A DNA stretch of 64,000 nucleotides. Source: Kiritimatiellia bacterium. Lineage in GTDB: Bacteria; Verrucomicrobiota; Kiritimatiellia; UBA8416; JABMPJ01. Numbering within the stretch: the stretch's first letter is position 1; each line of letters begins with the position of its first letter. The stretch spans positions 2,878 to 66,877 of the forward strand of contig JADHWE010000005.1 of assembly GCA_016783675.1 (NCBI GenBank), written 5' to 3'. Under the pieces are notes generated by a model. That model was not told the origin of the DNA. It did no database searches and saw nothing but the letters and a program-made list of their open reading frames with translations. A program made the position numbers and the translations under genes. Below are positions 15,372 through 44,921 of the stretch, piece after piece.

Positions 15372-16742
15372 GTGAAACAAGCGACAGCACAAGTAATTTG
15401 GAAGAAAGCCTGCAAACACCTTGAGTCGGTGTTGCATCCTGATGTTTACGAGCGTTGGATCGCCGTAATCGAGGCCCACGACCTGGAAGATCAGGCCCTC
15501 ACATTGGCTGTTGATAACGACTTCTACCAGACGTGGTTAGAGGAAAACTATCTTCCCCTCATCCGTGATGCATTGACCGCTGTTGATGGTGACTCCTACA
15601 CCATTTCTTTTGTGGTTCAGCCCCGCGCAAGCAAGCAGGATCCCGAAGCTTCTGCCCCGCGGCGCCGCACCATCCGTGAGCGTTTGCGGAAGCCGCACAT
15701 TGAAGGCGCGCTGAATTCCAAGTTCACGTTTGATCGTTTCATCGTCGGGTCATCGAACAACTTCGCGCACGCGGCGTCCCTGGCGGTTGCCCAAGCGCCG
15801 GCGCGCGCCTATAATCCGCTCTTCATCTACGGTGATGTCGGTCTTGGAAAGACCCACCTCATGCAGGCGATCGGCCATCACGTACTGGGGAGCGCGCGCG
15901 CCTCGGTCTGTTACATGTCGTCCGAGACCATGCTCAATGAGTACATCAGCGCCCTGCAGAACCGCAGCCTGGTCAGCTTCCGCAAGAAGTACCGCAATAC
16001 CGATCTACTCCTGATCGACGATATCCATTTCCTCGCCGGTAAGGAGCGCATCCAGGAAGAGTTCTTCCACACCTTCAATGCGCTTTTTGATTCGCATAAG
16101 CAGATCGTTATGACCAGTGATCGTCCTGCCAGCGAAATTGCCGGCTTGGAACAGCGCCTCGTATCCCGCTTCGAATGGGGTCTGGTGACCGAGCTGGAGC
16201 CGCCTGACTTCGAAACACGCGTGGCCATTCTCCGCAATAAGCAGGAACAGGCCGATGCCGACGTCGATGATGAGATCATCCAGTTTATAGCCGAACACGT
16301 CCGCTCGAACATCCGCCGGCTTGAGGGTGCCCTCGTACGCGCGCTCTCATATGCCTCTCTGACCGGGCGGGACCTGACGATTGACACGTTGCGCTATCTC
16401 CTGCGTGACGCGCTCGATACCGAGGAGACAGAGGATCTCTCGCTCGAAGGTATTCAGAAGGTCGTTGCCGAGCATTACGACATACGCCTTGCCGACATGA
16501 CAAGCACCCGCCGACCGCGTTCGATCGCGGTGCCGCGTCAGGTTGCGATGTATCTCTGCCGGACACTCACCCCGGCGTCTCTGCCGGACATTGCGAACGC
16601 GTTCAGCAAGACACACGCCACCGTGCTTCACGCCTACCGGTCGGTCGACAGCCGGATGGAAGTCGATACCGATCTGCGCGGTTCTGTTTCCACGCTTGCC
16701 CGTCGCCTTGGTCGATCGCTTCCGGCACATGTAGACGGCTGA
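15372..16742 (+). CDS. dnaA: Chromosomal replication initiator protein DnaA
   Basis: 456 aa, GTG start. Walker A GDVGLGKTHLMQAIGH, LLIDDIHFLAGKE, sensor/box VII region SNIRRLEGAL, and C-terminal DNA-binding AFSKTHATVLHA. Confidence 0.97.
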   Translation: MKQATAQVIWKKACKHLESVLHPDVYERWIAVIEAHDLEDQALTLAVDNDFYQTWLEENYLPLIRDALTAVDGDSYTISFVVQPRASKQDPEASAPRRRTIRERLRKPHIEGALNSKFTFDRFIVGSSNNFAHAASLAVAQAPARAYNPLFIYGDVGLGKTHLMQAIGHHVLGSARASVCYMSSETMLNEYISALQNRSLVSFRKKYRNTDLLLIDDIHFLAGKERIQEEFFHTFNALFDSHKQIVMTSDRPASEIAGLEQRLVSRFEWGLVTELEPPDFETRVAILRNKQEQADADVDDEIIQFIAEHVRSNIRRLEGALVRALSYASLTGRDLTIDTLRYLLRDALDTEETEDLSLEGIQKVVAEHYDIRLADMTSTRRPRSIAVPRQVAMYLCRTLTPASLPDIANAFSKTHATVLHAYRSVDSRMEVDTDLRGSVSTLARRLGRSLPAHVDG

Positions 16743-17032: not shown

Positions 17033-18127
17033 ATGAAGATTGCGCTACCAAAATCAGATCTGCTTGAAGGCCTGCAGGCCGTTCAGAACGTTGTCAGTAT
17101 TCGCACGACGCTTCCCATTCTCTCGAACGTCCTGCTCCAGGCCGAGAAGGGCAAGCTCACCCTGACGACCACCGACCTCGATGTCAGCATCCAGTGCACC
17201 ATCGACGCCAAGGTAGGCAAAGGCGGGGCCACCACGCTGCCGGCGCGTCGCCTCTCCAGCATTGTACGCGAGCTGCCCTCTACCGAGATCGAAGTCGAGG
17301 TGGACGACAAGGATACGGCCCAGGTTCAGTGTGGGTCGTCGTTCTTCAGGATCATGGGGCTCTCCGAGGAGGAGTTCCCGCCGATTTCCAAGGCCGAAGG
17401 GAAGTTCTGCTACACGCTCGACCAGGGCGCCTTCCGCGAGATGTTGAGGAAGACGGCCTATGCGGCGTCGACCGACGAGACCCGCTTCGTACTGAACGGC
17501 GTTTTCCTGAGCTTCAAGGATAGCAAGTTGGTTATGGTAGCGACGGACGGGCGGCGCCTGGCGCTGGTCGAACACGAGGTCGAGTTTCCGGCCGAAGCCG
17601 AAGTGGACATGATTCTGCCGTCGAAGGTCGCGACCGAACTGATGCACACGCTCGATGAGAGCGGCGAGCTTCGGATCCACACGAAAGAGAACCGGGTCAT
17701 GTTCGAGTTCGGGAACGTCGTGGTGTCGTCCAAGCTGATCGAAGGCACCTATCCGAATTACCGCCAGGTCATTCCGTCGCAGTGCGAGGAGCGTATTGCG
17801 GTGGAGCGCGAGGGACTGCTGACCGCACTCAAGCGTGTGTCGTTAGTCACGACGGAGAAAGCCACGGCCACGCACCTGACGTTTGGGAAGAACCAGGTTG
17901 TGGTGTCGATGACGACTCCGGATGTCGGTGAGGCGCGGGAAACGCTGCCGATCAAGTATACGGGCAAAGAGCTGCACGTCGCGTTTAACCCCGAGTACAT
18001 GATCGATCCGCTCAAGAATCTCGCGCAGGATGAGATCTTCATGGAGCTGACCGACGATCTGAGCCCGGGTGTCATGAAGTGCGACATCCCGTTCCTCTAC
18101 GTGCTTATGCCGATGCGTGTAAGCTAG
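17033..18127 (+). CDS. dnaN: DNA polymerase III beta subunit (sliding clamp)
   Basis: 364 aa, typical three-domain clamp sequence (LPILSNVLLQAEKGKLTLTTTDLDVSI..., LIEGTYPNYRQVIP). Immediately downstream of dnaA. Confidence 0.96.
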   Translation: MKIALPKSDLLEGLQAVQNVVSIRTTLPILSNVLLQAEKGKLTLTTTDLDVSIQCTIDAKVGKGGATTLPARRLSSIVRELPSTEIEVEVDDKDTAQVQCGSSFFRIMGLSEEEFPPISKAEGKFCYTLDQGAFREMLRKTAYAASTDETRFVLNGVFLSFKDSKLVMVATDGRRLALVEHEVEFPAEAEVDMILPSKVATELMHTLDESGELRIHTKENRVMFEFGNVVVSSKLIEGTYPNYRQVIPSQCEERIAVEREGLLTALKRVSLVTTEKATATHLTFGKNQVVVSMTTPDVGEARETLPIKYTGKELHVAFNPEYMIDPLKNLAQDEIFMELTDDLSPGVMKCDIPFLYVLMPMRVS

Positions 18128-19309: not shown

Positions 19310-19913
19310 GCGCTTCTGCGACGGCCAACCAGTCTTCGCAACGTACCACCTGTCCGTGCGTACCCGACAGGTTCAGGCTACGGTTCCAAGGGCGGTCGAG
19401 AACCGCCAGCGGAATATCCGTCTCCCGGATGAGAAACTCGATCATGGCGGGCGCATCCTCTACAGCGAGCGCAAACCCCATATCTGTAAGATATTGAGGC
19501 ACAACCACTTCCGCTCCTACTTGGTGGGAGGGGGCCCGTCCGTACTTGTCGACGAATAGAATGCGATCATAGGGTACACCGTGGCGCTCGAGCCACTCAT
19601 GACAGACCGGCTCGGTCTCCGGCGGCCGTCCTGTCACCACGACGGGCCGAATTCCGCGCCGGTCCCAATCGGCCAACACGTCCAACACGCCTGGCATCGG
19701 CGCCATGATGCGGAGAATATCCGGATCGTGAATCAGACCCATCAGGTAGTCGTACTCCTCCTGGTTCAGGTGAAACGACTTCTCCAGGTCGAAAAAATGA
19801 ATATCTTCAAAGGCGTATCGCCGCCCAAACTCACGCTCGACTACGTCGAGAAACGCATGCGCGGTCTCGCATAAGACGTCATCAAAATCGACATAAACGA
19901 GCGGGGCACTCAC
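19281..19913 (-). CDS. HAD-superfamily hydrolase, 5'(3')-deoxyribonucleotidase (NT5C)-like
   Basis: The track ORF runs to 20258, inside the upstream gene. The GTG at 19913 overlaps that gene's TGA (GTGA) and gives VSAPLVYVDFDDVLCET (the DxDxV/T HAD motif I). Confidence 0.65.
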   Translation of the reverse strand: MSAPLVYVDFDDVLCETAHAFLDVVEREFGRRYAFEDIHFFDLEKSFHLNQEEYDYLMGLIHDPDILRIMAPMPGVLDVLADWDRRGIRPVVVTGRPPETEPVCHEWLERHGVPYDRILFVDKYGRAPSHQVGAEVVVPQYLTDMGFALAVEDAPAMIEFLIRETDIPLAVLDRPWNRSLNLSGTHGQVVRCEDWLAVAEALNARVLCSA

Positions 19914-21253
19914 TCGACGGGCTCCTCTATGACCGAACCGGTTATCAGCTCGGGACGGCGATAGAGCGATGCCAGCCGGTCCGGGGACACACCCAACCGG
20001 TAACCCAACACGATAAGCTGGTTTATCAGGGTTGTGCGAAACACGCCGAGGCGGATCCAGCGGCGAGCGGAAGTCACCGCGGCTCGCCGCGCGAGACGAA
20101 TGCGCCCGCAGTTCCGAAGGCGGCACATCAACTCGAAGTCTTCCATGAGCGGTGTCACCGCAAAGCCCCCCATGGCGCGAAAACGCTCGGTACGCAGGAA
20201 AATAGCTTGGTCTCCGCAGGGAAGCCGGCACAGGCGAAACCGCCAGAGCGTCCCCCATTCAACCACGCGCCAGGCCAATCGCTCGCCTTCCAGTCGGAAA
20301 CGAAAGGCCCCGGCAATAACCTTTCTGAGAAGCGTCTGTTGGACATCAATCGCGAAGCGGTCTGGTAAAAGCGTATCCGCATGTAGAAAGAGAAGTACAT
20401 TCCCTGTTGCCGCCTGGGCCCCGACATTCATCTGGCAGGCGCGGTTTGGCGGCGCCGACAGCACGCGCGCGCCCTTGCCATAGGCCACGGTCCGCGTTCC
20501 ATCCCGACTTCCACCATCCACAACAATGACTTCGTGTGCATCCGACCGTATCCTGTCAATCGTAGCGCCAATCCGCTCGGCCTCGTTCCAGGCTGGGATC
20601 ACAACCGAGATACGGCATCCGCCGGCATGATGTTCAGGGCGCCCTGTGGTGCTTTCCCATACTGGGAGGTCATCCGGGAGGTCGACGTCGGCGAGAACAG
20701 GAAGGCGTGCAACACGAAGACCGAGTCTCTCCGCACGCACCAGCGTGTGCTGCAGCACCTCGGAACCGCCCCAGGCAATGCCATCGAACAGTGCGGGGTT
20801 CGGATGCTTCATCCCTATCAGGTAATAGCCACCATCCTGGGCCGGCCCGACAACGACATCGTACTCAAGCAGCTTGGAGAAGGTCTCGCCAAGTACCGCG
20901 GGCGTCAGACAGGGACAGTCCGTTCCAACGAGAACGACGCGTTCGTGGCGTGCACATTCTGTTTCGAACGCATGGGCCATGCGCTGACCGAGATCCCGAC
21001 CCCGTTGCCGCTGATAGCGGAGCCCCTGTCCCAGCCACTGGCGGAAGCGGGAGATGCGCGCCCCTGTGCCATAGACGGCGAGGGATACTTCCTGTTCACA
21101 GGCAACCTGGCGCGCTGTGAGCAGCGTATGGCCCGCCATACGGCGATGCAGTCGTGCGGCTCCGTGACGCCCCAAAGCAGGAATCAGGCGTGTCTTGCTC
21201 TTCCCGGGACGGGGATAGCGGGCAAATATGACAAGACAAGGAGACGTTTCCAC
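19910..21253 (-). CDS. Fusion protein: DUF2064 (MobA-like nucleotidyltransferase fold) plus family-2 glycosyltransferase
   Basis: 447 aa. N-terminal CLVIFARYPRPGKSKTRL is typical of DUF2064. The second half, ISVVIPAWNEAERIGATIDRI...VIVVDGGSRDGT, is a GT2 signature. Confidence 0.75.
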   Translation of the reverse strand: METSPCLVIFARYPRPGKSKTRLIPALGRHGAARLHRRMAGHTLLTARQVACEQEVSLAVYGTGARISRFRQWLGQGLRYQRQRGRDLGQRMAHAFETECARHERVVLVGTDCPCLTPAVLGETFSKLLEYDVVVGPAQDGGYYLIGMKHPNPALFDGIAWGGSEVLQHTLVRAERLGLRVARLPVLADVDLPDDLPVWESTTGRPEHHAGGCRISVVIPAWNEAERIGATIDRIRSDAHEVIVVDGGSRDGTRTVAYGKGARVLSAPPNRACQMNVGAQAATGNVLLFLHADTLLPDRFAIDVQQTLLRKVIAGAFRFRLEGERLAWRVVEWGTLWRFRLCRLPCGDQAIFLRTERFRAMGGFAVTPLMEDFELMCRLRNCGRIRLARRAAVTSARRWIRLGVFRTTLINQLIVLGYRLGVSPDRLASLYRRPELITGSVIEEPVE

Positions 21254-22768: not shown

Positions 22769-24742
22769 TTACTCTCCCGACCCTGTTCTCCCCACAATCA
22801 CCATCAACACCGAGATATCGGCCGGGGTGATGCCGGGGATGCGCAGGGCTTGGCCCAGCGTTTCGGGACGGATGCGATCGAGTTTTTCACGGGCTTCGAG
22901 TCGAAGCGGATCAATGGCGCGATAGTCGAGATCCGGTGGAATGCGCCGCTCTTCCATATCGCGTCGCTTTGCCACCTCGCGCAACTCCCGGTCAATGTAG
23001 CCGGCATAGCGAGCCCAGATCTCGACCTGTTCAGTGACAACCGGATCCAGATCCTCTCGCCGTCCGTTCAGATCGGCATAGCTCACTCCAGGCTGGCGCA
23101 ACGCATGCAGCAGTGTTTCACCATTGAGACGCGTCTCCTGAAGGCGCTTCTGCTCCACACCCACATCAGACGTAAAGCTCTCTGTTTCAGATAAAAACTC
23201 TGACGCTGCGATACCTATTCGCACGGCATGCTCACGTAGCCTGAATCGCGCGTTGTCCTGTCGTAGTAACAGACGATGCTCCGCCCGGGATGTGAACATG
23301 CGATAAGGCTCGTCTGTTCCCTTCATCACCAAGTCATCTATCAAGACACCAATATAGGCTTCATCTCGTCGGAGCGTGAACGGCGCCTCACCCCGGACCT
23401 TCAGTGCCGCATTCACTCCCGCCATGAACCCCTGGGCGGCCGCTTCCTCGTAGCCTGTCGTGCCATTGATCTGTCCGGCCAGGTAAAGTCCTGAGACAGC
23501 TTTAGTCTCCAGCGTGTGGGTCAACTGGGTTGGATCAATGAAATCGTACTCAATGGCGTAAGCCCACTGGAGAATCTCTGCTGTCTCGAGTCCCGGGATC
23601 GAGTGGACCATCTGCGTCTGGACATCGCGAGGAAGACTATTCGAGATGCCGTTTGGATATATGAGCTCCGTATCGCGTCCCTCCGGTTCAACAAAGACAT
23701 GATGCTGAGGTTTTTCCGGGAACTTGACGATCTTATCCTCAACAGACGGGCAATAGCGAACGCCCGTGCCCGAGATTTGTCCCCCGTAAAGGGAGCTTCG
23801 TTGAAGGTTTTCCCTGATAATTTGGTGTGTTTCGTCGGTTGTATGCCCCAGATAGCACGGAATCTGGTTTGCTCCCGGTTCCCAGGGCATGAGGGGAAAT
23901 GTCGAATGCGGAATGTCGAATGCGGAATGTGGGGAAGAAGATCCGGGCTCACATGGATGAGAAGACGTCCACTCACCAGGTACATGTTCCACGTGGAACA
24001 TTTCGAGGATCTCGTCGACTTCTGGGATATGTTCCACGTGGAACATCCGGTTGAGGCGTTTCACGGTCCAGGAGAAGAACGGTGCGGGTTCGACACCTGG
24101 TTGCAGCGCTAAACGGTCATAATCGATGCTATCTCTGTGCAATCTGGGTGGTGTGCCGGTTTTTAGCCTGGCGGTTCGGAATCCGAGTGACTGGAGGTCG
24201 AGGCTAAGCTCGTTCGCTGCGGGAAGCTGGCCACCACCGCCGGGTGTTGTTTCCTGGCCGATATGGATGGTACCTCGCAGTGAGGTGCCGGCACAGATGA
24301 CCACAGCCTTGGCGCTGACATGTGTGCCATCTGCGAGGAGGACACCGCGGATGTGGTCGTCTGCAATATTGAGTCCGGTGACATTTCCTTCAACAAGCTC
24401 AAGGTTCCCGGTGCGCTGGAGAACACGGCACATACGGTCGTTGTAGGCTTTCTTGTCGCATTGGGCGCGATTCGCCTGTACCGCCGGGCCTTTTCTCGTA
24501 TTCAGAACACGAAACTGGATTCCGGTCAGGTCGGTGTTGCGACCAATCTCGCCGCCCAGGGCATCGACCTCGAATACGAGGTGGGATTTGGCGATACCAC
24601 CGATCGAAGGATTGCACGGCATGTTGGCGGCCTTATCCGGCTGCATGGTGATGAGCGCGGTCTGCATCCCCATGCGCGCAGCAGCCAGAGCCGCCTCACA
24701 CCCGGCATGGCCTGCACCAACGATGATGATGTCGTAGTTCAT
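22769..24742 (-). CDS. mnmG: tRNA uridine 5-carboxymethylaminomethyl modification enzyme MnmG (GidA), with an in-frame insertion of about 58 aa
   Basis: The track start at 24913 gives a Pro/Ser-rich extension. The ATG at 24742 gives [18 protein letters not shown] (FAD motif). [37 protein letters not shown] and [13 protein letters not shown] are conserved. Confidence 0.95.
23898..23932. repeat. 14-bp tandem repeat (AATGTCGAATGCGG x2.4, internally 7-nt periodic) inside mnmG
   Basis: Read directly: AATGTCGAATGCGG AATGTCGAATGCGG AATGTGG. Translated in the mnmG frame as [12 protein letters not shown]. Confidence 0.8.
23985..24000. promoter_or_regulatory. parS-like centromere site 1 (TGTTCCACGTGGAACA)
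   Basis: Perfect 16-bp palindrome. One difference from the B. subtilis spo0J parS TGTTCCACGTGAAACA. Fits the consensus tGTTNCACGTGAAACa. Confidence 0.7.
24030..24045. promoter_or_regulatory. parS-like centromere site 2 (TGTTCCACGTGGAACA)
   Basis: Identical 16-mer, 45 bp from site 1, also inside the mnmG insertion. Confidence 0.7.
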
Positions 24743-24755
24743 AGTTTCTGTGGCT

Positions 24756-26120
24756 CTACTTTCCGATGCAGAACCGATTGAAGATTGTGTCCAGGAGTTC
24801 GGTGGTGTAGGTCCTGCCGGTAATCGTTCCGAGCATGTCGAGGGCGGCGCGGAGCATGTCGGCGGCGGGGACAAGGAGGGCCTCATCCTGGGAGGCGAGC
24901 TTCCTTGCATCATCGATCAGTTTTCTGGCGCCACTCAGCAACGCACGGTGGCGTTCGGAGATGACGGCATGGGGAGGGGTGTCCATTTGAACGAGTCGAC
25001 TCCGCAACGCATCCTGCACGTCGTCGATGCCGACGTCTTCCACCGCACTGCACGCGATAGTTTCAAAGGGTCCATCGGGGATGCCGGGAGGACCGTCCAC
25101 GAGGTCGCACTTGTTCTGTACGACTACGGTCCGCTCGGGCTGGAGAGCCTGCAACTTGGCGAGATCCGCACCGGTCGAGGCTTGCGAGGCGTCGATCAGG
25201 TAGAGCACAAGATCGGCTTGATCTATACTGTCTGTGGCACGCGTAACTCCTTGTTGTTCAACGAGACACGATGTATCGCGCAGGCCGGCGGTGTCCGTGA
25301 GGCGCATTTGAATTCCGCCCAGAATGAGCGTCTCTTCGATGGTGTCGCGGGTGGTGCCGGGGAGGTGTGTGACAATTGATCGCTCTTTGCCGAGGAGCCG
25401 ATTCATGAGGGTTGACTTGCCGACGTTGGGTTGTCCGGCAATCACGACACGCGCCCCATCACGCAGGAGATGGCCTTCCTCCCAGGTTGAGAGCAGGGCG
25501 GCGATCTCGTCCTCTGCGGCGGCGAGTGTGGCGTCGGTGTTGTCGAGGACGGACGCGGGCAACTCGCCCTCCTCAAAGTCGAGGGATGCTTCAAGATCGG
25601 CGACGGCCGCCATGAGGTGATCATACAGCGTGTTGAGTTGTGTGCTGAGACGGCCCTCAAGCTGTTCAACGGCGGCAGCAGCGGCGCGATCGGAACGGGC
25701 GCGAATGAGATCGGCAACGGCCTCGGCTTGCACCAGGTCGATCCGGCCGTTGAGAAAAGCACGTCGAGTGAACTCACCGGGATCCGCCATCCGGGCCCCG
25801 GCATTAAGGACGGCCTCGAGCAGGCGCTGTGCCGCGGCCTGGCCGCCGTGGCCCTGGATCTCCACGACGTCATCGCGTGTGTAGCTGTGCGGGGCGCGGA
25901 AGATCAGCACAACCGCCTCATCGATTTCCTCGCCGTCGCTGACAATGCGACCGTGTAGAAAGGTACCGCCAGGGCGAGAAGAGGGAGGATCGCCTGCGCA
26001 CGTCACGAGTAGATCCGCAATAGCAAGGCTCTGCGGACCGGACAAGCGCACGATCGCGATACCGGCTGGACCGGGAGCAGTGGAAACTGCGGCTATGGTG
26101 TCGGAGAAGATGCTGTTCAC
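24756..26120 (-). CDS. mnmE: tRNA modification GTPase MnmE (TrmE)
   Basis: The track start at 26423 overlaps the upstream gene. The GTG at 26120 gives [28 protein letters not shown], which matches the MnmE N-terminus pattern. G-domain [24 protein letters not shown]-terminal FCIGK. The exact start is uncertain because there is no clear RBS. Confidence 0.9.
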
Positions 26121-26197
26121 GCCGCGAAAATAGAGCGTAACGTCCCTCAAGGGCAACTCAGAACTTCGCACTCTGCAAGGAACCCGGCCCGAACAGT

Positions 26198-27385
26198 CTA
26201 GAGCCGGGAGCGAATCCAAGCGTACTCTCGCGCAAGACTCTCGTCGATTCCGGCGGCACGGAGGCCAGGAGGGAGCACATCGAAGGTGTAGGTTTCGATC
26301 TCCAGGTGGGAAACACCCACATCCTTCAGCATTTTGAAGAAGGAGGGTGAGAGATCGGTGGCGGTTGAACCAAGGGACCCGTAGGAATCGAAGTAAAGGG
26401 GCACATGGAAATGGATGCGCCATGTCTCGGCGGGATTGGCCGTTGTTGTGTCCAGCGCGATGTCGAGGTCGGAATAGGACCGCGAACCTTCCTCATCGGC
26501 TGTCCGTGCCTTGACTTGGTGCAGATAGACCGGATCACAGAATGCCCTGAGTGCATCGCGAGCTTCCGGTGTGTTCTGCGCGTGCAGGGCTGAACTCAGT
26601 TGGACTTTGGATATGAGTATCCCGGCATCAAACAGGGCGCGCAGGCTCTGATCGACTGACTCGAACTGCAAGGCAAGGTGACAGGTGTCAACACATATGC
26701 CAAGGTGTCTTGCGATAAGGGAGCCATAACATAACATATTGGTATTTAACAGCTTATCAAGATATGGTATCCCGATACGCCTAATCGGGCCACCGAAGAA
26801 AGCGAGTGCATCTGCCGTGGTTTCGAGGAAGCAGTCTGGTTCCGGCTCCAATCCCAGAGTCAGATGACAGCCCTGTTCTCTCTCGATATGGGCGAGGTGG
26901 GCGACGACCTCCATCAGCTGTTGGACCATGTTCGCAATATCCTCGTCGCTGGAAATCCACGCGCCATAGGACCCGGGAACGGTGCTGATACTGACGGTCT
27001 GGCCCGGCGAAGCGAGGCGTGCGGAGATGTCGGCCACACGGATAGTATAATCACGTCGCTCCTCCGTGCGCCAATCGGGGTGGTAGACCGCCTCCTTCAC
27101 GCGCTCGCCATGGAAGGTCCCGTACGGGAAGGCGTTGACAGTGAGCAGATAGAGGTCATGTTCATCGAAAAGGGCCTGCATGGCGGATAGCGCCTCAGGT
27201 GTAGCTTCCAATGTTGCGGCATTGGAGAGGCGGAGTCCGAGTCCGAACGGCCGCCCCGGTGCCATCCGCTCACGCAGGGGCACCACATGGTTGCGGATGG
27301 CTGTCACACAGTCATCCCAGGTTTCACCGGGATGGACATTCATGCAGTAGGTCAGGTGGCAGGGAGGGCTGGCATCGATCTTCAT
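26198..27385 (-). CDS. eboE: EboE-like xylose-isomerase-fold TIM-barrel protein (last gene of the ebo-type cluster)
   Basis: The ATG at 27385 overlaps the upstream TGA (ATGA). N-terminus MKIDASPPCHLTYCMNVHPGETW. Assigned from operon context with the TatD-like, UbiA-like, phosphodiesterase and DHQS-like genes. Confidence 0.75.
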   Translation of the reverse strand: MKIDASPPCHLTYCMNVHPGETWDDCVTAIRNHVVPLRERMAPGRPFGLGLRLSNAATLEATPEALSAMQALFDEHDLYLLTVNAFPYGTFHGERVKEAVYHPDWRTEERRDYTIRVADISARLASPGQTVSISTVPGSYGAWISSDEDIANMVQQLMEVVAHLAHIEREQGCHLTLGLEPEPDCFLETTADALAFFGGPIRRIGIPYLDKLLNTNMLCYGSLIARHLGICVDTCHLALQFESVDQSLRALFDAGILISKVQLSSALHAQNTPEARDALRAFCDPVYLHQVKARTADEEGSRSYSDLDIALDTTTANPAETWRIHFHVPLYFDSYGSLGSTATDLSPSFFKMLKDVGVSHLEIETYTFDVLPPGLRAAGIDESLAREYAWIRSRL

Positions 27386-34903: not shown

Positions 34904-36109
34904 CTATGCCTTCACTGAGAATCCCAAGTTCCTAATACTGTCTTGCAGAGCAGATAGTGTGTCTTTTGCCTGCACTTCAGTAAAGCGAAACTCGCGGCGG
35001 ATGGGGTAAGCCTTCCTTAAGCCGTCAAAATGGGCACGCCGTTCCGCCTCGCCACCGGCCGGCACGGCGCGCATGCGGGCATCGTCGGCTTCGATGTCAT
35101 ACACGCTGCGGACCAGTTCCCAGAGCGCGGCCTCTGTCGACAGGTCGGGATCCGCCCGTAATTCCGGCACGACCGGGGGCGGAAGGAGCGCGTCGGGGGT
35201 CCAGGAGGGTGGCTCATCGAGGAAGCGACAGGCCTCGCGGTAGACCGTGACGGTGCCCATGTATTTGCCTTCGTACGAATAGCCGGCAATATGTGGGCTG
35301 GCGATGGCAACTCTCTCCAGGAGATCCGTCCGGAAGTCCGGTTCGCCCTCCCAGGTATCGATAATGGCATGCGCGACGATGCCGCGGTCCATCGCGCGCA
35401 GTAGTGCGTCCGTATCAACAATCGGGCCGCGGGCGGCGTTTACGAAGATGCAGCCGGGTTTGAGCTGGGCAAAGAAATCATCATCGGCCAAGTGGTAAGT
35501 GGCATCCTTCCCTTCGTACGTCAGGGGCGTGTGAAGGGTGACGATGTCGGAATGGGCCAATACATCAGGCAGCGCCGCCCAACTTGTTCCGACTTCCGAT
35601 TTCCGATTTCCGATTTCCGACCTCTGGCCTCCGACTTCCGGCGCGCGGTCCCCCGCGCGCTCACGCGGCGGGTCATTAGGGAGCATCGTCATGCCCAGGG
35701 CGGCGGCCTTCTTAACCACACGTGTGCCGACATTGCCGACGCCGATGACGCCAATCGTCTTGCCGGCCAAAGCAATACCGTGTTTCTGCCCCACGCAGAG
35801 CAGGGCAGCAGTGAGATACTCGGACACGCTGTTGGCATTGCAGCCGGCCGCGGAACACCAGCGGATGCCGCGCTCCTCGAGATAGGGAATATCAATGTGG
35901 TCGGTACCGATCGTGGCCGTGCCGTAGAACTCGACCTGGCTGTCCTCGAGAAGTGCCGGCGTGATGGGGGTGGTGGATCGGGTAACGAGCAGATCCGCAT
36001 CGCGGACGTCGTCCGCCGTAATGTCGCGACCATCCAGCAACGTGACATCACCCAGCGTGCCGAACGCTTCGGCTACAAACGGCATATTCTTGGCGGCTAC
36101 GATCTTCAT
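34904..36109 (-). CDS. pdxB: 4-phosphoerythronate dehydrogenase (D-2-hydroxyacid dehydrogenase family) with a repeat-encoded loop insertion
   Basis: 401 aa. N-terminus and GTATIGTDHID, GVIGVGNVGTRV (NAD motif), NAARGPIVD and SPHIAGYSYEGK follow the PdxB pattern as I recall it from E. coli. An extra segment of about 20 aa, APEVGGQRSEIGNRKSEVGTS, is present. Confidence 0.85.
   Translation of the reverse strand: MKIVAAKNMPFVAEAFGTLGDVTLLDGRDITADDVRDADLLVTRSTTPITPALLEDSQVEFYGTATIGTDHIDIPYLEERGIRWCSAAGCNANSVSEYLTAALLCVGQKHGIALAGKTIGVIGVGNVGTRVVKKAAALGMTMLPNDPPRERAGDRAPEVGGQRSEIGNRKSEVGTSWAALPDVLAHSDIVTLHTPLTYEGKDATYHLADDDFFAQLKPGCIFVNAARGPIVDTDALLRAMDRGIVAHAIIDTWEGEPDFRTDLLERVAIASPHIAGYSYEGKYMGTVTVYREACRFLDEPPSWTPDALLPPPVVPELRADPDLSTEAALWELVRSVYDIEADDARMRAVPAGGEAERRAHFDGLRKAYPIRREFRFTEVQAKDTLSALQDSIRNLGFSVKA
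35587..35642. repeat. Heptanucleotide tandem tract (TTCCGAY x5 plus 3 degenerate units) inside pdxB
   Basis: TTCCGAC TTCCGAT TTCCGAT TTCCGAT TTCCGAC CTCTGGC CTCCGAC TTCCGGC read directly. Confidence 0.85.
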
Positions 36110-39050: not shown

Positions 39051-42000
39051 CTATTGCTCCACAAGAATGCAGTAGAAGGTGCTGTGTCCGCCGGAAGGCA
39101 CGTAGAGCGTCATGCTCTCAGCAGTAGCCATGGCGGACGCCGACGAAAGCGGGCCAAACTCGCGGGATGCCACGGACTGTAGCGCCCAACTGGCATTACT
39201 CAAGTCGGTGCAGGAACGCACACTGTAGGTACGCCCGGGCACGGTCGTAAACGTCACCGGAACGCGACCGGCCTGATGGTGGGCAACATGAACGACGTGG
39301 AACACGCTTAACGGATCGTTTGGATCCGTGCCGGCAATCCACTCCTTCCACGCAGGCATGCCGTCGTCATCCAGATCAAGCTCGTCTTGAACGGCGAATC
39401 CACCGTTGGTCAGGTCGTGTGCCGCCAGCCACCAGAAGGGCGTTCCTCGTGCAGTGGTTTCGTCAACAAAGGTGGCCCCAATCTGCCGCGGGTGACTGAT
39501 GCGGACCAGGATCTGGGTATGGACCGTGTCACATCCGTTCGTGTCGCCCTCCCATGCCCCGAACGCAGAGTAGAGACTCGCTGTTGCCGACATCCAGAAA
39601 CTTGTACTGTTTTCAAACCAGCCTGGGTCCACGGACACGCCTCCGTTTCCGGTGGCGTATGTGTGGAGCCAGTAGTTCGTCTCCCAATGCCAGATCACGC
39701 TGGTATCGTTGGTAAGGATGAACGATCCCGTATTCGTACTTGTTCCGGTTGCGGGAGCACAGCCTGTCCCTTGCCATCCTGTGCAGAGGAACATGCTATT
39801 GTCTTCAAGCACCGGAGAATCGACAACGGAGCAGACCACCGTAGCTCCCGCCGCGAAAACATTCTCGCCGAGAGCCGGTGTAGTCGTTCCATGTTCAGAC
39901 TCTACGGACAGCATGAAGTTATCCATGTACACGCCACTGACTACCACGTCATCAATATTCCAGCCGGGGTGTGTCTCCGATGAGTCGGTCGGGCCCATCG
40001 ACCAGCGAAGGAACACCGAGGACTGATTGTCGGCAACGCCGGAGATATCATAGATGACATTGGACCACGCGGCATCGGAGATGGTGCCGCCGTCATGGGA
40101 CCACACAGACGTCCAATGTGTGCCATTGCTGCTGACCTCAACCTGTGCGTGATCAAACGCTGAGTGTTCAACGCCGAGCCACCTGTAGAACGACAAGACA
40201 ACATCCCGGTAGTTTGAGCAATCCAGGCTACCCGTTGTCAGATATCGATTCGTGAGATCGTTCTCGTAGTCCCCGTTCAGGTTGTAGCCATATACGTTGA
40301 TATCCGTGTGACCGCCCAACGGATCCCCGGCATGAGAGCCGTTGCCCAGCGGTGTGCCAAATGCCCAGCCGGCTTCAGCTGTCCATCCTGGATTGCTGTC
40401 GAAGGTGAAGTTGTGGATGGGGTCGCCGTCTGGTGGGCTAATAATCAAGCGCACGTCACGTTGTTGAACGCATCCGCTGGTGGTGTTCGACACGGAGACT
40501 TGGGTGAAGTAGACACCCGGCGAAAAGCTGGTGATCTGGTCATTCAAGACCACATAGAACAACCCTACTTCTCCTGCTGTGAGGGTTCCGTTGGATACGG
40601 GGATATCGATCCAAGATACGGAACGTGACCCTTCCCATGTCACTGACACGCCGGCTTCATTTGTCATGGCGAAGTCGCCCCAATCGGTCGTGGGCATTTC
40701 ACCCCATGATGTTTCGAATTCCACTGTGTCGGGCGCCATCGCGATTTCGGGCGCCATCACATCGAATACCACGGGAACAACGACTTGTGGCTGTTCAACA
40801 TCATCGGTGGCGATGATGATTTCGCCCTGATACTCGCCCGGCTTCAGATCCGACGCATCCAGAATCGCTTCGACATCAACGGCTGCGCCGGGGACGATAG
40901 CTGCCGCTGAGTCGGGCACTACCGTCAGCCACGGTGCCCACATCCCGGCAACGGCACTGGCTAGATTGAGGCGTCCACCGGACACACATTCTCCTGGAAG
41001 TGTAGGGTCGGCAGTTTCCATGAGCACTGCCCTGATTTGGGCCGGTGTCAACATGGGGTTGATGGCTCTGAGCATGGCGCTTGCACCGGCCACATGCGGC
41101 GTGGCCATGGACGTGCCGCTCATCGTCTGATAGTCGTTCCCCGGCTTGCAGCTTAGGATATCGCTGCCCGGGGCGCCTATATCGACCGAAGTTTCACCGT
41201 AGTTAGAGAAATAGGACCGACTATCCTCATGGTCCGTTGACATCACGGCAATGATATTCTCCGAGTCGTAACCGGCCGGGTATTGCGGAGAGGCGTCGTT
41301 GTCGTTCCCATAGTCGTTGCCTGCTGCTGCGGCAAATACAACGCCTGTGGTGCCGGCCGCATCAATGGCATCCTTCAGCGCTTGTGAATAGCCCCCGCCG
41401 CCCCAGGAATTGTTCATGACGTGGGCGCCCATGGCCGTTGCGTATTCGATGCAGGAAATGGCATCTACCGTGGACCCGGAACCGAACGAGCTGAGGAACT
41501 TCAGTGCCATGATCCGTACCTGCCAGTTCACGCCGACCACACCAATACCGTTGTCTCCTTCTGCCCCAATGGTTCCGGCACAGTGAGTGCCGTGACCATG
41601 GTCGTCCATAGGATCTGCATCGCTGTTATGGAAGTCGTACCCATAGACATCATCCACATAGCCGTTTCCGTCATCATCGATGCCGTTGGAAGCGATTTCC
41701 CCCTCATTGGTCCATACGTTGGCCACCAGGTCCTCATGGGTGTAATCCACACCGGTGTCAATTACGGCAACCACCACGTCTCGGCGCCCCACATGCATAT
41801 CCCATGCTTCGGGCGCATCGATATCAGCATCTTCAGTGCCTCCCGTCTGTCCGGTGTTGTGCATGCCCCAGAGCTCATCGAAGTCAACGTCATCGGGAAT
41901 GGTCCCAAATGCCTTCACCTCGTAATTGGGTTCCGCATACAGGATGCCAGCGTCCGCGTTGAGTGACTGTAGGGCCTCGGATACTTCCGTGGACGTCGGC

Positions 42001-44627
42001 AATTCCACCACACACAGGCCCGGAACCAGCTTGAATTTCCGGACGATCCGAGCGCTACCAAGGGCGTTCAGGAGAGTATGTCCTTTCCGGCCTATTGCCG
42101 GGTCCGCAAAACGCACGATCAATGAGTTCGTAGCATGCTGCACCCCTGCGAGGGGTTGAGAGAAATCGTGTCCAGCCGGTAGCGCAGTGTCGGACATTGT
42201 GACGGAGAGCGACTGCATGGCCGGCGCACGTATCTCACGTGCCCTCACCGAAACGTTCAGTTCGGCATCTCCACTGTTGCCGATCGAAAGAGGAACACGT
42301 GACAACATGCCTGCAAAATTGGTCACTGCTATGGACGTTGGCGCCACCCACGCCTCCGGGCTCTTGAATACCGTTACGCTGACATCTCTCTCCTGTGGAA
42401 TACCGGTCGTGAGGTCGGATACGGTTACCTTTCCTGTGTTTACACCTTCTGCGAGCCCTTCTGCGCCGGACTCCAAATGCACAGTCAGGTTGGTCTGGCT
42501 TCCGGCTTCGAGCGTTCCGGCCACGGGAGAAATCCCGAACCACTCTTTGGATACGTCGCCCTCCCACACAACGGAAACGGGGCCCCGGTTGGATAGAGCA
42601 TAGACCTGTTCGTCAGGCGCGAACGGTCCCCCCGGGTGCCCGGAGAAAAGGGACGCTGTAGCAGGCGAGATGTCCAGGTAGTCGAACACACGCGCACCTG
42701 TCACATGGACCGCCAACGCGGGTTCGTCGTGGTCATTGCTCAGAAAGACGATGTGCGCCTTATGATCGCCAATGGATGTCGGCTCATAGACCACATCGAT
42801 AGTCACCGCGTCGCCGGGAGCAATAACCAAAGGGGTTGAAGGAACGTTCTCCCAGCGAATGGGCGGCTGCGAGGAGAATATCTCAATGCGCGATGGTTCT
42901 GTGATGGACCCGTTGTAGGGAAGCACAACCCAATCGGGATCGAACTCCTTGGCAAGATCACGGGGTGCCGTATGCCCGTTGTACCAGGCCTGCTCTGCGG
43001 TGGGCGATCCTTCAGCCGTGATGGGGTCACTCACGTCGACATTGTCGAAGAAGTGCGTCGTCTCGTCGCCCGGCATGGAGAACCCACACACACCGATGTG
43101 ACCTGCTGTCAGATCGGAATCCGTTCCATCCCACACAGGAATACCGTTGATAAGGAATCGCAAATCTGTTCCCTCGGCACTGGCGGTCAGGATATTGGTG
43201 TCCGCGTTGATCGCCGCCGATGACGTCCAGGACTGAAGCCATGTGAACGCCCCATCAATCTGCTTCCAGATGCAATAGCTTCCAGATGCGCTAATGCTGA
43301 ACACATATCCGTCACCTGCCCCCTCGTCAAAACCGACGCTCGTTCTCAGCGCGATTCCTGCCGCGGAGTAGATGCTACCCGATCGACGACAGAAGGCGCT
43401 GACCGACAGGTCATCCCATGAGTCGCCGGCGTAGTAGCTCACCATGTAATCCTGTCCTGATACTTCGGCCTTGTATTCCCCGGCAACGACCGACCACGAC
43501 GAAGCCTGGTCCGGGACCCAATCGGCGGCTTCGCCGCTCTCGAAATCATTGAAATACTCACCATGCAACTCGATTTCCGAGATGATGAGGTCGTAGCTGG
43601 TGTCCAGGTTGGCAACAGTGATGTGGCCCGTGCTGCTCATGCCCTCCAGCAACGCTCCGAACGGAACTCTGTGATCGGTGGCGGACGGAATCGAGTCCGT
43701 AATATCGATTTCTCCAGGATTCCTATCAATGTGGACCGAAACGGTACGATGCTGGGCATATTCCGACACGGTATTCAGGAGCACAACATCGCTGGAGTAG
43801 TCACCTTCTGGGAGAAGCTGAACTTCACTGTTCAGCCAGACAACAATGACGGTGGATGCTGCTGCGCCAAGGGTTCCTGAGGATGGATGGACGCTTATCC
43901 AACTCTCTGTTGTCGCAATTTTCCAGTCTATGCTGCTGCTGCCGATGTTGGTCAGTTCGTAGGTTATGTTCTGAGGTGATGGGGTGTTACCTTCGTATCC
44001 CCACGCTTCCAGTCCCCCGGACGGGGTCATCTTGAGATCATCGACCTTATCACCAAGGATTCGGACATCGTCGATGTTCCATCCACAATAGGTAACACTC
44101 GAGTCCGTTGGGCCCATACCCCAGCGCAGATAGACTGTGGACAGATTGCTGGCGACGGTCGAAATGTCGAGAACGATGTTAGACCATGCGTAGTCCCAGA
44201 CAAAACTGTCGTTTGACCAGATGGGCTCCCAATTCTGGTCGTCTGTACTCACCTCGATCGTCGCATGGTCGAAATAGGGGCTTTCGACACCCAGCCAACG
44301 CCAGAAATCCAGCTCTATACTTGCGTAACCTGCGCAATCGAGCGCAGGTGTGGTCAGGTAATGGACCCCCATGCTGTTCGAATAACTGCCGCCAAGGTTA
44401 TACCCGTAGACATAGTCACCCGTATGACCTGTGGACGGATCGCCCCCTTGGCCCAGAGGCGTGCCGAACTGCCATTCGCCCTCCGTGGCCCAGCCGGGGT
44501 CCGAATCAAGGGCAAAAGAGTAGATCGTGTCTTTGGCTTCCGCTTGCAGCAGGCAGCACGCAAGTAGTATTGACGTGCTTTGCAGGAGACGGCGGATGCA
44601 TGAACGTTCCCTTCTTTCTGTGCCCAT
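39051..44627 (-). CDS. Giant secreted multidomain S8 (subtilisin-family) serine peptidase, about 1858 aa
   Basis: Catalytic motifs DTGVDYTHEDL, HGTHCAGTIGA and GTSMATPHVAGA. I9-like propeptide (LIVRFADP...ILYAEPNYEVKAF) at about aa 830-905. Two copies of a MAM/choice-of-anchor-J-like domain (...GWNIDDV). BACON-like Ig domains. LamG/DUF1080-like domain. The track start is 44726. The ATG at 44627 gives MGTERRERSCIRRLLQSTSILLACCLLQAEA (signal peptide). Confidence 0.9.
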   Translation of the reverse strand: MGTERRERSCIRRLLQSTSILLACCLLQAEAKDTIYSFALDSDPGWATEGEWQFGTPLGQGGDPSTGHTGDYVYGYNLGGSYSNSMGVHYLTTPALDCAGYASIELDFWRWLGVESPYFDHATIEVSTDDQNWEPIWSNDSFVWDYAWSNIVLDISTVASNLSTVYLRWGMGPTDSSVTYCGWNIDDVRILGDKVDDLKMTPSGGLEAWGYEGNTPSPQNITYELTNIGSSSIDWKIATTESWISVHPSSGTLGAAASTVIVVWLNSEVQLLPEGDYSSDVVLLNTVSEYAQHRTVSVHIDRNPGEIDITDSIPSATDHRVPFGALLEGMSSTGHITVANLDTSYDLIISEIELHGEYFNDFESGEAADWVPDQASSWSVVAGEYKAEVSGQDYMVSYYAGDSWDDLSVSAFCRRSGSIYSAAGIALRTSVGFDEGAGDGYVFSISASGSYCIWKQIDGAFTWLQSWTSSAAINADTNILTASAEGTDLRFLINGIPVWDGTDSDLTAGHIGVCGFSMPGDETTHFFDNVDVSDPITAEGSPTAEQAWYNGHTAPRDLAKEFDPDWVVLPYNGSITEPSRIEIFSSQPPIRWENVPSTPLVIAPGDAVTIDVVYEPTSIGDHKAHIVFLSNDHDEPALAVHVTGARVFDYLDISPATASLFSGHPGGPFAPDEQVYALSNRGPVSVVWEGDVSKEWFGISPVAGTLEAGSQTNLTVHLESGAEGLAEGVNTGKVTVSDLTTGIPQERDVSVTVFKSPEAWVAPTSIAVTNFAGMLSRVPLSIGNSGDAELNVSVRAREIRAPAMQSLSVTMSDTALPAGHDFSQPLAGVQHATNSLIVRFADPAIGRKGHTLLNALGSARIVRKFKLVPGLCVVELPTSTEVSEALQSLNADAGILYAEPNYEVKAFGTIPDDVDFDELWGMHNTGQTGGTEDADIDAPEAWDMHVGRRDVVVAVIDTGVDYTHEDLVANVWTNEGEIASNGIDDDGNGYVDDVYGYDFHNSDADPMDDHGHGTHCAGTIGAEGDNGIGVVGVNWQVRIMALKFLSSFGSGSTVDAISCIEYATAMGAHVMNNSWGGGGYSQALKDAIDAAGTTGVVFAAAAGNDYGNDNDASPQYPAGYDSENIIAVMSTDHEDSRSYFSNYGETSVDIGAPGSDILSCKPGNDYQTMSGTSMATPHVAGASAMLRAINPMLTPAQIRAVLMETADPTLPGECVSGGRLNLASAVAGMWAPWLTVVPDSAAAIVPGAAVDVEAILDASDLKPGEYQGEIIIATDDVEQPQVVVPVVFDVMAPEIAMAPDTVEFETSWGEMPTTDWGDFAMTNEAGVSVTWEGSRSVSWIDIPVSNGTLTAGEVGLFYVVLNDQITSFSPGVYFTQVSVSNTTSGCVQQRDVRLIISPPDGDPIHNFTFDSNPGWTAEAGWAFGTPLGNGSHAGDPLGGHTDINVYGYNLNGDYENDLTNRYLTTGSLDCSNYRDVVLSFYRWLGVEHSAFDHAQVEVSSNGTHWTSVWSHDGGTISDAAWSNVIYDISGVADNQSSVFLRWSMGPTDSSETHPGWNIDDVVVSGVYMDNFMLSVESEHGTTTPALGENVFAAGATVVCSVVDSPVLEDNSMFLCTGWQGTGCAPATGTSTNTGSFILTNDTSVIWHWETNYWLHTYATGNGGVSVDPGWFENSTSFWMSATASLYSAFGAWEGDTNGCDTVHTQILVRISHPRQIGATFVDETTARGTPFWWLAAHDLTNGGFAVQDELDLDDDGMPAWKEWIAGTDPNDPLSVFHVVHVAHHQAGRVPVTFTTVPGRTYSVRSCTDLSNASWALQSVASREFGPLSSASAMATAESMTLYVPSGGHSTFYCILVEQ

Positions 44628-44921
44628 GGTATCCAGTCTCCGTCTTTCGCCTGTCGCTTCGCGTGGTTCGCCGTTCATGAACGAGGCCCCACCAATCATG
44701 CTGTCAATGCGACGATTCGTTGCCAAGGGGGGCGGTCTGTCGCGTCAGAGCATGGACCGGCACGGAGAGGCCGTCAAGGGATATTGCTTGGTCTGCGCTT
44801 GTTCGGAGATGGTCTTGGGTGTCTTGATGTGGCGTGAGGTATTTGCCCATCATGGCACGACAATATGACCTTGCGAGGGCGCGGCGGGCGATCTAGACTG
44901 GATGGATTGGAGGATACGGAC

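Follow-up and report, generated by a model that had tools for sequence, protein, structure and literature searches.

Putative parS sites of the chromosomal centromere type inside the mnmG reading frame of Kiritimatiellia and related lineages

We propose that two identical 16-bp palindromes within the mnmG (gidA) reading frame of a Kiritimatiellia bacterium are genuine chromosomal parS, that is, putative ParB-loading sites that would make up an origin-proximal centromere inside a gene, and we put the probability of this reading at roughly 85%. The palindromes are located in the stretch of DNA analysed here (64 kb, ‘the window’) at 24030-24045 (copy 1, first in gene order, read as M233-F-H-V-E-H238) and at 23985-24000 (copy 2, read as M248-F-H-V-E-H253), neither being assigned a strand. 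Both are exact matches to TGTTCCACGTGGAACA, their starts are 45 bp apart, and both agree with the parS consensus TGTTNCACGTGNAACA at 16/16 positions. The original prediction had described two perfect 16-bp palindromes at these positions and with this separation, both read as MFHVEH in the mnmG frame, and these points were reproduced exactly; its further suggestion, that centromere-like sites are housed in a loop of MnmG, gains support at the level of sequence from the clade-wide conservation described below and from the identity of the sites to parS2 and parS3 of P. aeruginosa. These two sites are the same 16-mer as TGTTCCACGTGGAACA and are the ones best bound by ParB in vitro in that organism. 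The likeness extends to the arrangement, with two close copies of a perfect palindrome a few kb from dnaA and a low copy number (within the 64-kb window). Unlike parS2 and parS3, however, the sites considered here fall in the reading frame of a conserved enzyme, and no parAB was found for at least 18 kb to one side and 40 kb to the other.

There are exactly two copies of TGTTCCACGTGGAACA in the 64-kb window, the runner-up match having three mismatches, and simple arithmetic gives a chance expectation of ~3e-5 exact copies for one given 16-mer over 64 kb and both strands. The related TGTTCCACGTGAAACA, seen 3′ of mnmG in two Firmicutes-labelled loci, fits the earlier description of the palindrome as one base away from the B. 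subtilis spo0J site. Among the parS consensus variants, TGTTCCACGTGGAACA alone is free of stop codons in all six frames, so it could presumably be embedded in a gene whatever indels arise around it. The spacer between the two copies (24001-24029, minus strand; 29 bp) encodes IPEVDEILE, for which a short helix is weakly predicted (AF2, residues 243-249 in query numbering, low confidence).

The host gene (22769-24742, minus strand) is an intact CDS of 657 aa, whose ORF translation is identical to the called protein P0001, present on seven contigs. Considering its fold, domains and cysteines, the product is predicted with good agreement to be the MnmG/GidA tRNA U34 cmnm5 modification enzyme. It matches Pfam GIDA (PF01134) at 505 bits against a cut-off of 22.1, together with the C-terminal domains GIDA_C_1st and SAM_GIDA_C (PF21680, PF13932); MnmG chains in the PDB are matched with E values of 1e-158 to 1e-170, and the AF2 model, with an overall pLDDT of 91, has TM scores of 0.85/0.92 to 2zxh_A. 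An 85-sequence alignment (query numbering) shows no variation at C44 (CNP) or C332 (RYCPS), which correspond to C47 and C277 of E. coli, or at G10, H13 and G15 of the GxGxxG motif, and alignment to the natively numbered E. coli chains places C277 in RYCPS and equates the Cys of QIPCY with C242.

The sites occupy a lineage-specific, in-frame loop of insertion domain 2 (23867-24067, minus strand; residues 226-292), where the gap between PFFSW and QIPCY amounts to 67 residues, compared to nine in the E. coli chains (MGNASQHPQ, stretch 230-238). These were the lengths originally given, and the statement that the ORF stays open through the insert is borne out by the intact gene with its full set of Pfam domains. 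The loop could not be aligned to any solved MnmG compared, and its pLDDT per ten residues runs 63, 58, 44, 46, 40 and 79 between flanks that both exceed 90; because of this low confidence and lack of structural alignment, it is probably surface-exposed. The region 255-292 that is unstructured in crystals is located downstream of the insert, and the position of the loop is not among the MnmE-contact residues as quoted from the cryo-EM paper. Loop length is far from constant, the KTGTP-to-RYCPS span ranging from 92 to 242 aa among relatives; the span from KTGTP to YCPS in other phyla is 76-96 aa (one residue more on the KTGTP-to-RYCPS scale). A loop so permissive, tolerating up to roughly 160 extra residues, might be useful for tagging the enzyme.

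The insert had been left to be dated by comparison with relatives. The extra stretch as such stands, but it is not a private insertion, since it was found in all sampled relatives of three lineages. One to three sites are present within the same loop in 119 of the 120 closest MnmG homologues listed (55-82% identity). Of these 120, 97 carry a second site, whose spacing varies over 9-48 aa and whose reading frame differs in some species, and 21 have a single in-loop site; the first site falls 9 residues past the FFS motif in 87 of 113 homologues. All 120 Verrucomicrobiales homologues listed have an in-loop site, a single one in each. At the DNA level, 22 related loci and the window together provide 42 in-loop sites, 36 of them perfect and six with one mismatch, which in five of the six cases concerns the outermost base. 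In the 22 related loci the 16-mer is confined to mnmG or the stretch just upstream of it, orthologues with as little as 46% identity still have it at the same codon position, and a metagenome scan added five more loci of the in-loop type. As judged from these sequences, in-loop parS is a trait shared by all the MnmG sampled from MAGs that carry the label Kiritimatiellia, Lentisphaerae/Victivallales or Verrucomicrobiales.

What is conserved is the DNA rather than the peptide. From species to species the reading of the site changes between FHVE, VPRGT and STWN, so that each of the three frames is used, and one locus (L041) has all three readings within a single gene. Where FHVE is encoded, the codons are TTC-CAC-GTG-GAA in 22 of the 22 motifs checked, while elsewhere in the same genes these codons serve 51, 32, 31 and 47% of their amino acids. 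The neighbouring residues obey the palindrome as well: of 204 FHVE cases, 197 have a residue of the NTG type (M, L or V) in front and 200 a residue of the CAN type (H or Q) behind. When the DNA of the window is aligned with that of three relatives, the sites stand out as invariant blocks amid variable sequence, the spacer between them differing at synonymous and non-synonymous positions alike. One proposed check had been whether relatives possess the extra peptide without the palindromes; they keep the palindrome even where the loop peptide differs, the difference arising because the site is read in another frame. Taken together, these comparisons show purifying selection on the DNA at orthologous positions, which clearly keeps the 16-mer unchanged while peptide, frame, spacer and loop length drift freely. 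One might instead suppose that MFHVEH is functional in MnmG, as a His/Glu metal or cofactor site for example, and that the palindrome is its by-product. The near invariance of F235 (query numbering) in the protein alignment and the fixed position of the first motif after FFSW would fit such a role. We nevertheless consider it highly improbable, since the same DNA encodes VPRGT or STWN in other species, the 22 motifs are without synonymous variation, the adjacent residues simply follow the NTG and CAN codon options, AF2 confidence in the region is low, and a motif of the MFHVEH type is absent from the MnmG of the other phyla sampled. MFHVEH as a functional peptide is, in short, contradicted by the frame and codon data. 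The case also carries a caution for annotation, in that a ‘conserved motif’ of a protein alignment may be a DNA element, as MFHVEH produces the nearly invariant F235.

Let us consider next whether the palindromes might be kept for the sake of the mnmG mRNA, either as a small hairpin at each site or as a long hairpin joining the two copies, acting as a processing, stability or translational-pausing signal. An 81-nt segment of the mRNA can indeed form a 23-bp hairpin of -36.7 kcal/mol, compared to -19.4 for shuffled sequences (z -5.45). However, a palindrome present twice will always pair between its copies, and this fold of the mRNA therefore follows automatically. An RNA role is also difficult to reconcile with the single in-loop site of 21 of the 120 close homologues and of all 120 Verrucomicrobiales homologues listed, or with an inter-site spacing that ranges over 9-48 codons. 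Every one of the 16 positions is fixed, even in the central ACGT, which would be the loop of a hairpin, and the six variant sites are single changes with no compensatory pairs, where covariation would be expected of a structural RNA. With the sequence being moreover identical to a known protein-binding site, we regard selection on an RNA element as very unlikely.

The surroundings of the sites in the window might be those of an origin region. dnaA (15372-16742, plus strand; Pfam Bac_DnaA, DnaA_N, Bac_DnaA_C) ends ~7.2 kb from the nearer site, in keeping with the ~7 kb first estimated, and with dnaN (17033-18127, plus strand; Pfam DNA_pol3_beta) it forms a pair 5.9-8.7 kb from the sites; the cumulative GC skew of the window has its minimum at 22-24 kb. 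DnaA-box matches to the E. coli consensus (up to one mismatch) number 10 against 6.75 expected, with no clustering. Among the loci of relatives, the linkage of dnaA-dnaN to mnmG is shared only with L001 and L002, and because dnaA is absent within 10 kb of mnmG in more distant relatives, the indication of origin proximity is limited to the organism of the window and its two closest relatives. The gene directly upstream of mnmG, for the partner enzyme of MnmG, is mnmE (24756-26120, minus strand, 5′ end approximate; Pfam TrmE_N, MnmE_helical, MMR_HSR1), and this adjacency is kept in 17 Kiritimatiellia-type loci and was not found in three Verrucomicrobiales loci.

The absence of parA and parB from the window, also asserted at the outset, agrees with every search made: a motif scan of six-frame translations of the 64 kb, tblastn with 13 ParB and 14 ParA queries taken from other-phylum loci, and Pfam searches covering the large ORFs of the first ~58 kb all returned neither. 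No ParA or ParB was found either in the ~2.8 kb past the left end of the window, available from another assembly (L048), or in 15 related loci searched up to 10 kb on each side of mnmG. We note in passing that an ORF at this left end is spurious, a minus-strand alpha-2-macroglobulin gene being cut by the window edge. Because neither gene was found in the window or within 10 kb in relatives, we infer rather than observe ParB as the binder of the sites. ParB homologues are reported to be conserved across the PVC (Planctomycetes-Verrucomicrobia-Chlamydiae) superphylum, ‘to a lesser extent’ than other factors (PMC4989314), and ParABS homologues have been reported for Akkermansia muciniphila (PMC10197239).

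Comparison with other phyla offers a possible origin for the arrangement. In none of the 45 loci from these phyla does parS occur in the loop; in 31 it lies just beyond mnmG, no more than a few hundred bp from an end of the gene and often at 3-100 bp. The loci of Firmicutes, Proteobacteria and Acidobacteriota have parAB after mnmG, with parS a short way downstream, and in loci of Bacteroidota, Chlorobium and Zixibacteria mnmG is bracketed by parS within 3-100 bp, with no ParA or ParB motif in the locus stretch searched; two Planctomycetota loci had no site at all. Verrucomicrobiales loci, where an internal site is combined with another lying 24-49 bp before the start codon of mnmG, look intermediate between the flanking and the internal arrangement. 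A different job for the same sites has to be weighed at this point, namely that a ParB-family protein or another palindrome binder controls mnmE-mnmG, as a roadblock or silencer, or that the sites only load SMC. Their location within the transcribed body of the mnmE-mnmG pair, a conserved linkage to mnmG and not to dnaA, and the lack of a nearby parAB could all be read in this way, and gene regulation has been raised as a possible role of some parS sites in the P. aeruginosa parS paper. Still, the sequence is that of a canonical centromere site, the same kind of site sits beside mnmG and parAB in the Firmicutes, Proteobacteria and Acidobacteriota loci, and no datum points to regulation specifically. 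We therefore consider such a role improbable, if less so than an mRNA signal.

If the palindromes are genuine parS, as we favour, the following scenario may be envisaged. ParB is a CTP-dependent clamp. A ParB encoded elsewhere in the genome would bind the sites and spread over neighbouring DNA and, with ParA and/or SMC, would segregate and organise the origin region, MnmG tolerating the encoded peptide because the loop is permissive. From a parS hugging the ends of mnmG, as in many phyla, a site would have been gained inside the gene in the ancestor of these lineages, and this move perhaps came after parAB had left mnmG. A bolder extension, which we think doubtful, is that the mnmG loop is the principal or only centromere, that its place within the mnmE-mnmG unit is functional, and that the loop is a dedicated, evolvable ‘centromere cassette’ instead of a tolerated passenger. 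In that case RNA polymerase and the ParB clamps loaded inside mnmG would influence one another, possibly coupling segregation or the state of the origin to how much of a tRNA wobble-modification enzyme is made, and through it to decoding; or else transcription across the sites might help clear or reposition ParB.

Intragenic parS as such would have a precedent. In B. subtilis, parS is reportedly found inside spo0J/parB and at other places in coding regions, so that a ParB site is translated there as part of a protein-coding gene. To our knowledge, no dedicated extra loop has been reported for those sites, nor a host position that stays the same across orders or phyla. Unlike them, the mnmG loop is lineage-specific and hypervariable, and nothing in it is constant except the site, whichever of the three frames it is read in. 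The loop also resembles conserved signature indels, which are usually explained at the protein level, in being an insertion that keeps the frame of a universal enzyme, stays at one place and defines a clade; it differs from them in that the conserved content is apparently a cis-acting DNA site, with the protein sequence as passenger. The origin-proximal cluster mnmG(gidA)-rsmG(gidB)-parA-parB with flanking parS (PMC13438810) shares with our case the linkage of parS to mnmG, whereas in Kiritimatiellia, Lentisphaerae and Verrucomicrobiales the sites are inside the gene and not at its edges, and parAB is no longer adjacent. Our literature search returned nothing linking parS to the interior of mnmG/gidA; MFHVEH was not found, the two matches to FHVEH were unrelated, and the OMM12 supplement contains no parS coordinates.

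Should the proposal be correct, the in-loop 16-mer would provide a sequence-based finder of the likely centromere in Kiritimatiellia, Lentisphaerae and Verrucomicrobiales (the order of the gut Akkermansia), poorly studied and mostly uncultured lineages, and may assist in positioning the origin region within their contigs. It would also be a clean instance of dual coding, a 16-bp protein-binding DNA signal fixed for very long in a universal enzyme while peptide, frame and loop are free. The association of parS with mnmG seems to have outlasted the departure of parAB, which raises the question of why mnmG is a preferred centromere neighbour.

The distal, hypervariable part of the loop contains a 14-bp tandem repeat of AATGTCGAATGCGG in 2.4 copies (minus strand; TRF score 66, 100% matches). 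The original prediction had it extend over 23898-23932; the repeat and its start are borne out, and TRF ends it at 23930. It consists of two related heptamers, read in two frames as SAFDI / PHSTF. At its place the closest relative, L001, has a run of CATTCCG heptamers and further relatives have runs of CTCCGAY heptamers; a similar run is present at 35587-35640, inside another gene of the window. Such heptamers, in the loop and in this other gene, might suggest that a miniature mobile element or a genome-wide palindromic repeat once landed in mnmG. Yet no further copy of the 16-mer occurs in the 64 kb, its orthologous codon position is fixed down to 46% identity, and no terminal repeats or target duplications surround the insert, where only weak inverted matches of 72-87% were seen. 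On the copy count, the terminal repeats and the fixed position, a mobile element or dispersed repeat was rejected, and we hold a selfish or generic origin to be the least probable of the explanations considered, close to negligible. The heptamers themselves are confined to the variable tail of the loop and are unlinked to the palindromes.

The two copies of the parS-like palindrome TGTTCCACGTGGAACA are exact matches at 23985-24000 and 24030-24045, both embedded in slightly longer 23-nt repeats, and the whole 64-kb window contains no further match with fewer than three mismatches. A tandem-repeat scan places the 14-bp repeat beside them at 23898-23930. Their host gene, mnmG (22769-24742, minus strand), encodes a 657-aa protein that public data call on 7 contigs (P0001) and that matches Pfam GIDA in two stretches (505 bits) and both C-terminal MnmG domains. 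The mechanical ORF probably overextends upstream (24743-24913); the called start at 24742 lies 13 bp past the end of the mnmE ORF at 24756. The latter ORF probably overextends likewise (26121-26423), with TrmE_N beginning at its residue 109. Directly upstream of mnmG lies mnmE, and the two genes are probably one operon. The sites lie 5.9-8.7 kb from dnaA (15372-16742) and dnaN (17033-18127). In natively numbered E. coli MnmG, KTGTPPR...PVFSF spans 198-229 and QQVPC begins at 238, leaving 9 residues between the motifs, compared to 67 here, which correspond exactly to window 23867-24067. Every checkable detail of the original prediction, which had described two palindromes and a tandem repeat within an enlarged mnmG loop close to dnaA, proved correct.

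Residue numbers from the structure search, the protein alignment and AlphaFold2 are in query numbering, one above the true numbering, because the queries started one codon early. Solved MnmG structures align on either side of query residues 228-287, with a gap across that stretch. The AlphaFold2 model, built with an 85-sequence alignment, has a mean pLDDT of 91 and a pTM of 0.91, and its superposition on MnmG of Aquifex, Chlorobium and E. coli gives TM scores of 0.83-0.92. Only the loop drops in confidence (ten-residue pLDDT means of 63, 58, 44, 46, 40 and 79 over query residues 231-290), with two short, weakly supported helices predicted before the first site and between the sites. Within insertion domain 2, the loop stands where E. 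coli has residues 230-238, a position that coincides with none of the MnmE-contact residues quoted from the published cryo-EM work; it is upstream of the 255-292 segment, which orders upon MnmE binding. The loop-bearing enzyme looks functional, since the 85-sequence alignment shows no variation at the FAD-binding glycines or at the two cysteines that correspond to C47 and C277 of E. coli.

As judged from comparative sequence data, it is the DNA, and not the peptide, that is under selection at these sites, and four independent lines agree. Across species the palindrome is read as FHVE at 204 sites, as VPRGT at 11 and as STWN at 3, and one relative (L041) carries one site in each of the three frames within a single mnmG, as confirmed on its DNA. 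All 22 FHVE motifs with DNA sequence are written TTC-CAC-GTG-GAA; at other positions of those genes, the four codons make up 51, 32, 31 and 47% of the use for their amino acids. The residue preceding FHVE is M, L or V (NTG) in 197/204 and the following one H or Q (CAN) in 200/204, exactly the freedom that remains because bases 1-16 are fixed. Lastly, when the window DNA is aligned with that of three relatives (protein identity 82, 80 and 72%), both sites are invariant blocks amid neighboring sequence that varies synonymously and non-synonymously, and the distal loop is unalignable. When relatives were checked for the peptide without the palindrome, the reverse was seen: the palindrome is kept, sometimes without the peptide, in other frames. 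The reading-frame and codon data speak against a functional peptide; copy number and the fixed orthologous position contradict a mobile or generic repeat.

The insertion in mnmG stands as originally predicted, but it is not private to this organism. Among the 120 best MnmG matches (55-82% identical to the window protein; named members are MAGs labeled Kiritimatiellia, Lentisphaerae and Verrucomicrobia), almost all have xFHVE[HQ] in the same loop; at least one site is present in 119/120, two in 97 and three in one. The first site lies 9 residues past the FFS motif in 87/113 homologues and the second 9-48 residues beyond the first, while the KTGTP-to-RYCPS span, whole loop included, ranges from 92 to 242 residues. 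A second search, seeded with the Verrucomicrobiales MnmG from locus L009, which shares 46% identity with the window protein, gave exactly one FHVEQ in 120/120 matches listed, running straight into the conserved QLPCW motif. The DNA of 22 loci from these lineages plus the window contains 42 in-loop sites, 36 perfect and 6 with one mismatch, the latter at the outermost base in 5/6. In three Verrucomicrobiales loci, where no mnmE was found ahead of mnmG, a perfect parS precedes the mnmG start codon by 24-49 bp, and one site is internal (L009, 9460-9475 and 9952-9967; L045, 9970-9985; L046, 4582-4597), with a third site still further upstream in L009. The last codon of this internal site is the conserved Q of QLPCW, so that the site overlaps conserved protein sequence and not free loop.

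Since the palindromes are identical, an inter-site hairpin is possible in mnmG mRNA or in replicating single-stranded DNA. Paired with each other, the two copies (23975-24055, minus) give a 23-bp stem closed by a 21-nt loop (-36.7 kcal/mol, z -5.45), as would be expected if the palindromes were kept for an mRNA fold. However, any two copies of one palindrome would pair likewise, the loop holds just one site in many species, inter-site spacing is unconserved, all 16 positions including the would-be loop are fixed, and variant sites lack compensatory changes; we therefore regard an RNA element as highly improbable. The hairpin is probably a by-product, though one with conceivable effects on translation, on processing by RNase III or on replication slippage in the loop.

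Returning to the palindromes as parS, TGTTCCACGTGGAACA is identical to P. aeruginosa parS2/parS3, the sites with the strongest in-vitro ParB binding in that species. Of four consensus variants, only TGTTCCACGTGGAACA is free of stop codons in every frame on both strands, which makes it easy to embed in a gene; those with A at position 12 have TGA in one frame. B. subtilis has known parS sites within genes, and the gidA-gidB-parAB neighborhood is a textbook arrangement. In comparison loci from other phyla, parS is in general strongly associated with mnmG: a site lies within a few hundred bp of the mnmG ends in 31/45 and in the loop in 0/45, with no site found in two Planctomycetota loci. In the Firmicutes, Proteobacteria and Acidobacteriota loci the sites are downstream of mnmG, beside parAB; those of Bacteroidota, Chlorobium and Zixibacteria have sites on both sides of mnmG at 3-100 bp, and no ParA/ParB motif was found in the sequence stretch around it. 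The conserved neighbor of parS seems to be mnmG itself rather than parAB. Because the other-phylum loci show flanking sites and none in the loop, the lineages studied here resemble a later stage of a progression that may have led from flanking sites, through upstream plus internal sites (Verrucomicrobiales), to one to three internal sites (Kiritimatiellia, Lentisphaerae). Among the other-phylum loci (L016-L040, L056-L080), those of Bacteroidota, Chlorobium, Zixibacteria and Alphaproteobacteria have parS hugging the mnmG start and stop codons, at about -60 and +3 to +9 in L020 and L030, +4 and +29 in L040, and +14 and +30 in L037, while L017 has seven sites within 560 bp upstream and two downstream.

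The palindromes in the mnmG loop are, on this comparative evidence, real and conserved, and a role for them is mechanistically plausible. Most likely they are genuine parS at which a ParB would load, forming a chromosome centromere near the origin. That the same protein-DNA interaction serves mnmEG regulation or SMC loading instead of segregation is, in our view, unlikely, though sequence alone gives no separation between them. As originally noted, no parA or parB was found in the 64-kb window, nor in ~2.8 kb past its left end, nor, for 15 related loci, in sequence reaching up to 10 kb to either side of mnmG. Support for a ParB is indirect: according to PMC4989314, ParB homologues are conserved throughout the PVC superphylum, if 'to a lesser extent' than some other factors, and PMC10197239 reports ParABS homologues in all twelve OMM12 genomes, Akkermansia muciniphila included. 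Origin proximity of the mnmG sites was seen in this organism and its two closest relatives only. Cumulative GC skew reaches its minimum at 22-24 kb of the window, a weak indication of a nearby origin; matches to the E. coli DnaA-box consensus show no clustering in the window. In the searchable literature we found no description of parS in a dedicated hypervariable in-frame MnmG loop common to Kiritimatiellia, Lentisphaerae and Verrucomicrobiales. These sites are open to experiment in cultured Verrucomicrobia.

A few other features of the window deserve mention. A TTCCGAC-like heptamer tandem repeat of 7.7 copies (35587-35640; ORF 34904-36109, minus), encoding PEVGGQRSEIGNRKSEVG, forms an in-frame insert in a PdxB-like 2-hydroxyacid dehydrogenase. 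Its heptamer-derived peptides ('QRSEVG', 'TSDLRP') recur in two relatives (L042, L043), where they occupy the variable portion of the mnmG loop; two related heptamers, of another sequence, also make up the 14-bp repeat at 23898-23930. This suggests a clade-wide heptamer repeat family that may be expanding in permissive protein loops; as the unit is 7 bp, copy-number changes not in multiples of three would shift the frame. At the left end, ORFs 587-1519 and 1775-2383 are spurious: the region (1-2700, minus; L048 12729-17654 in another assembly reaching further left) is part of a 1383-aa alpha-2-macroglobulin-like gene (MG2/A2M/TED) that the window edge truncates, with a Gp49 (HigB-like) and HTH pair past it, probably a toxin-antitoxin. 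About 15-27 kb from the sites, a cluster (39051-44726, 46806-50741, 50816-51805) encodes a pair of very large subtilase (S8) proteins, which carry Ig-like, BACON or MAM-like domains, and an outer-membrane protease of the omptin family. Between dnaN and mnmG lie a fused DUF2064 and family-2 glycosyltransferase gene (19910-21253, minus) and then alanine racemase, and the alr / DUF2064-GT2 / thioredoxin neighborhood is kept beside mnmG in L047 (5606-6925), whose MnmG is 72% identical.
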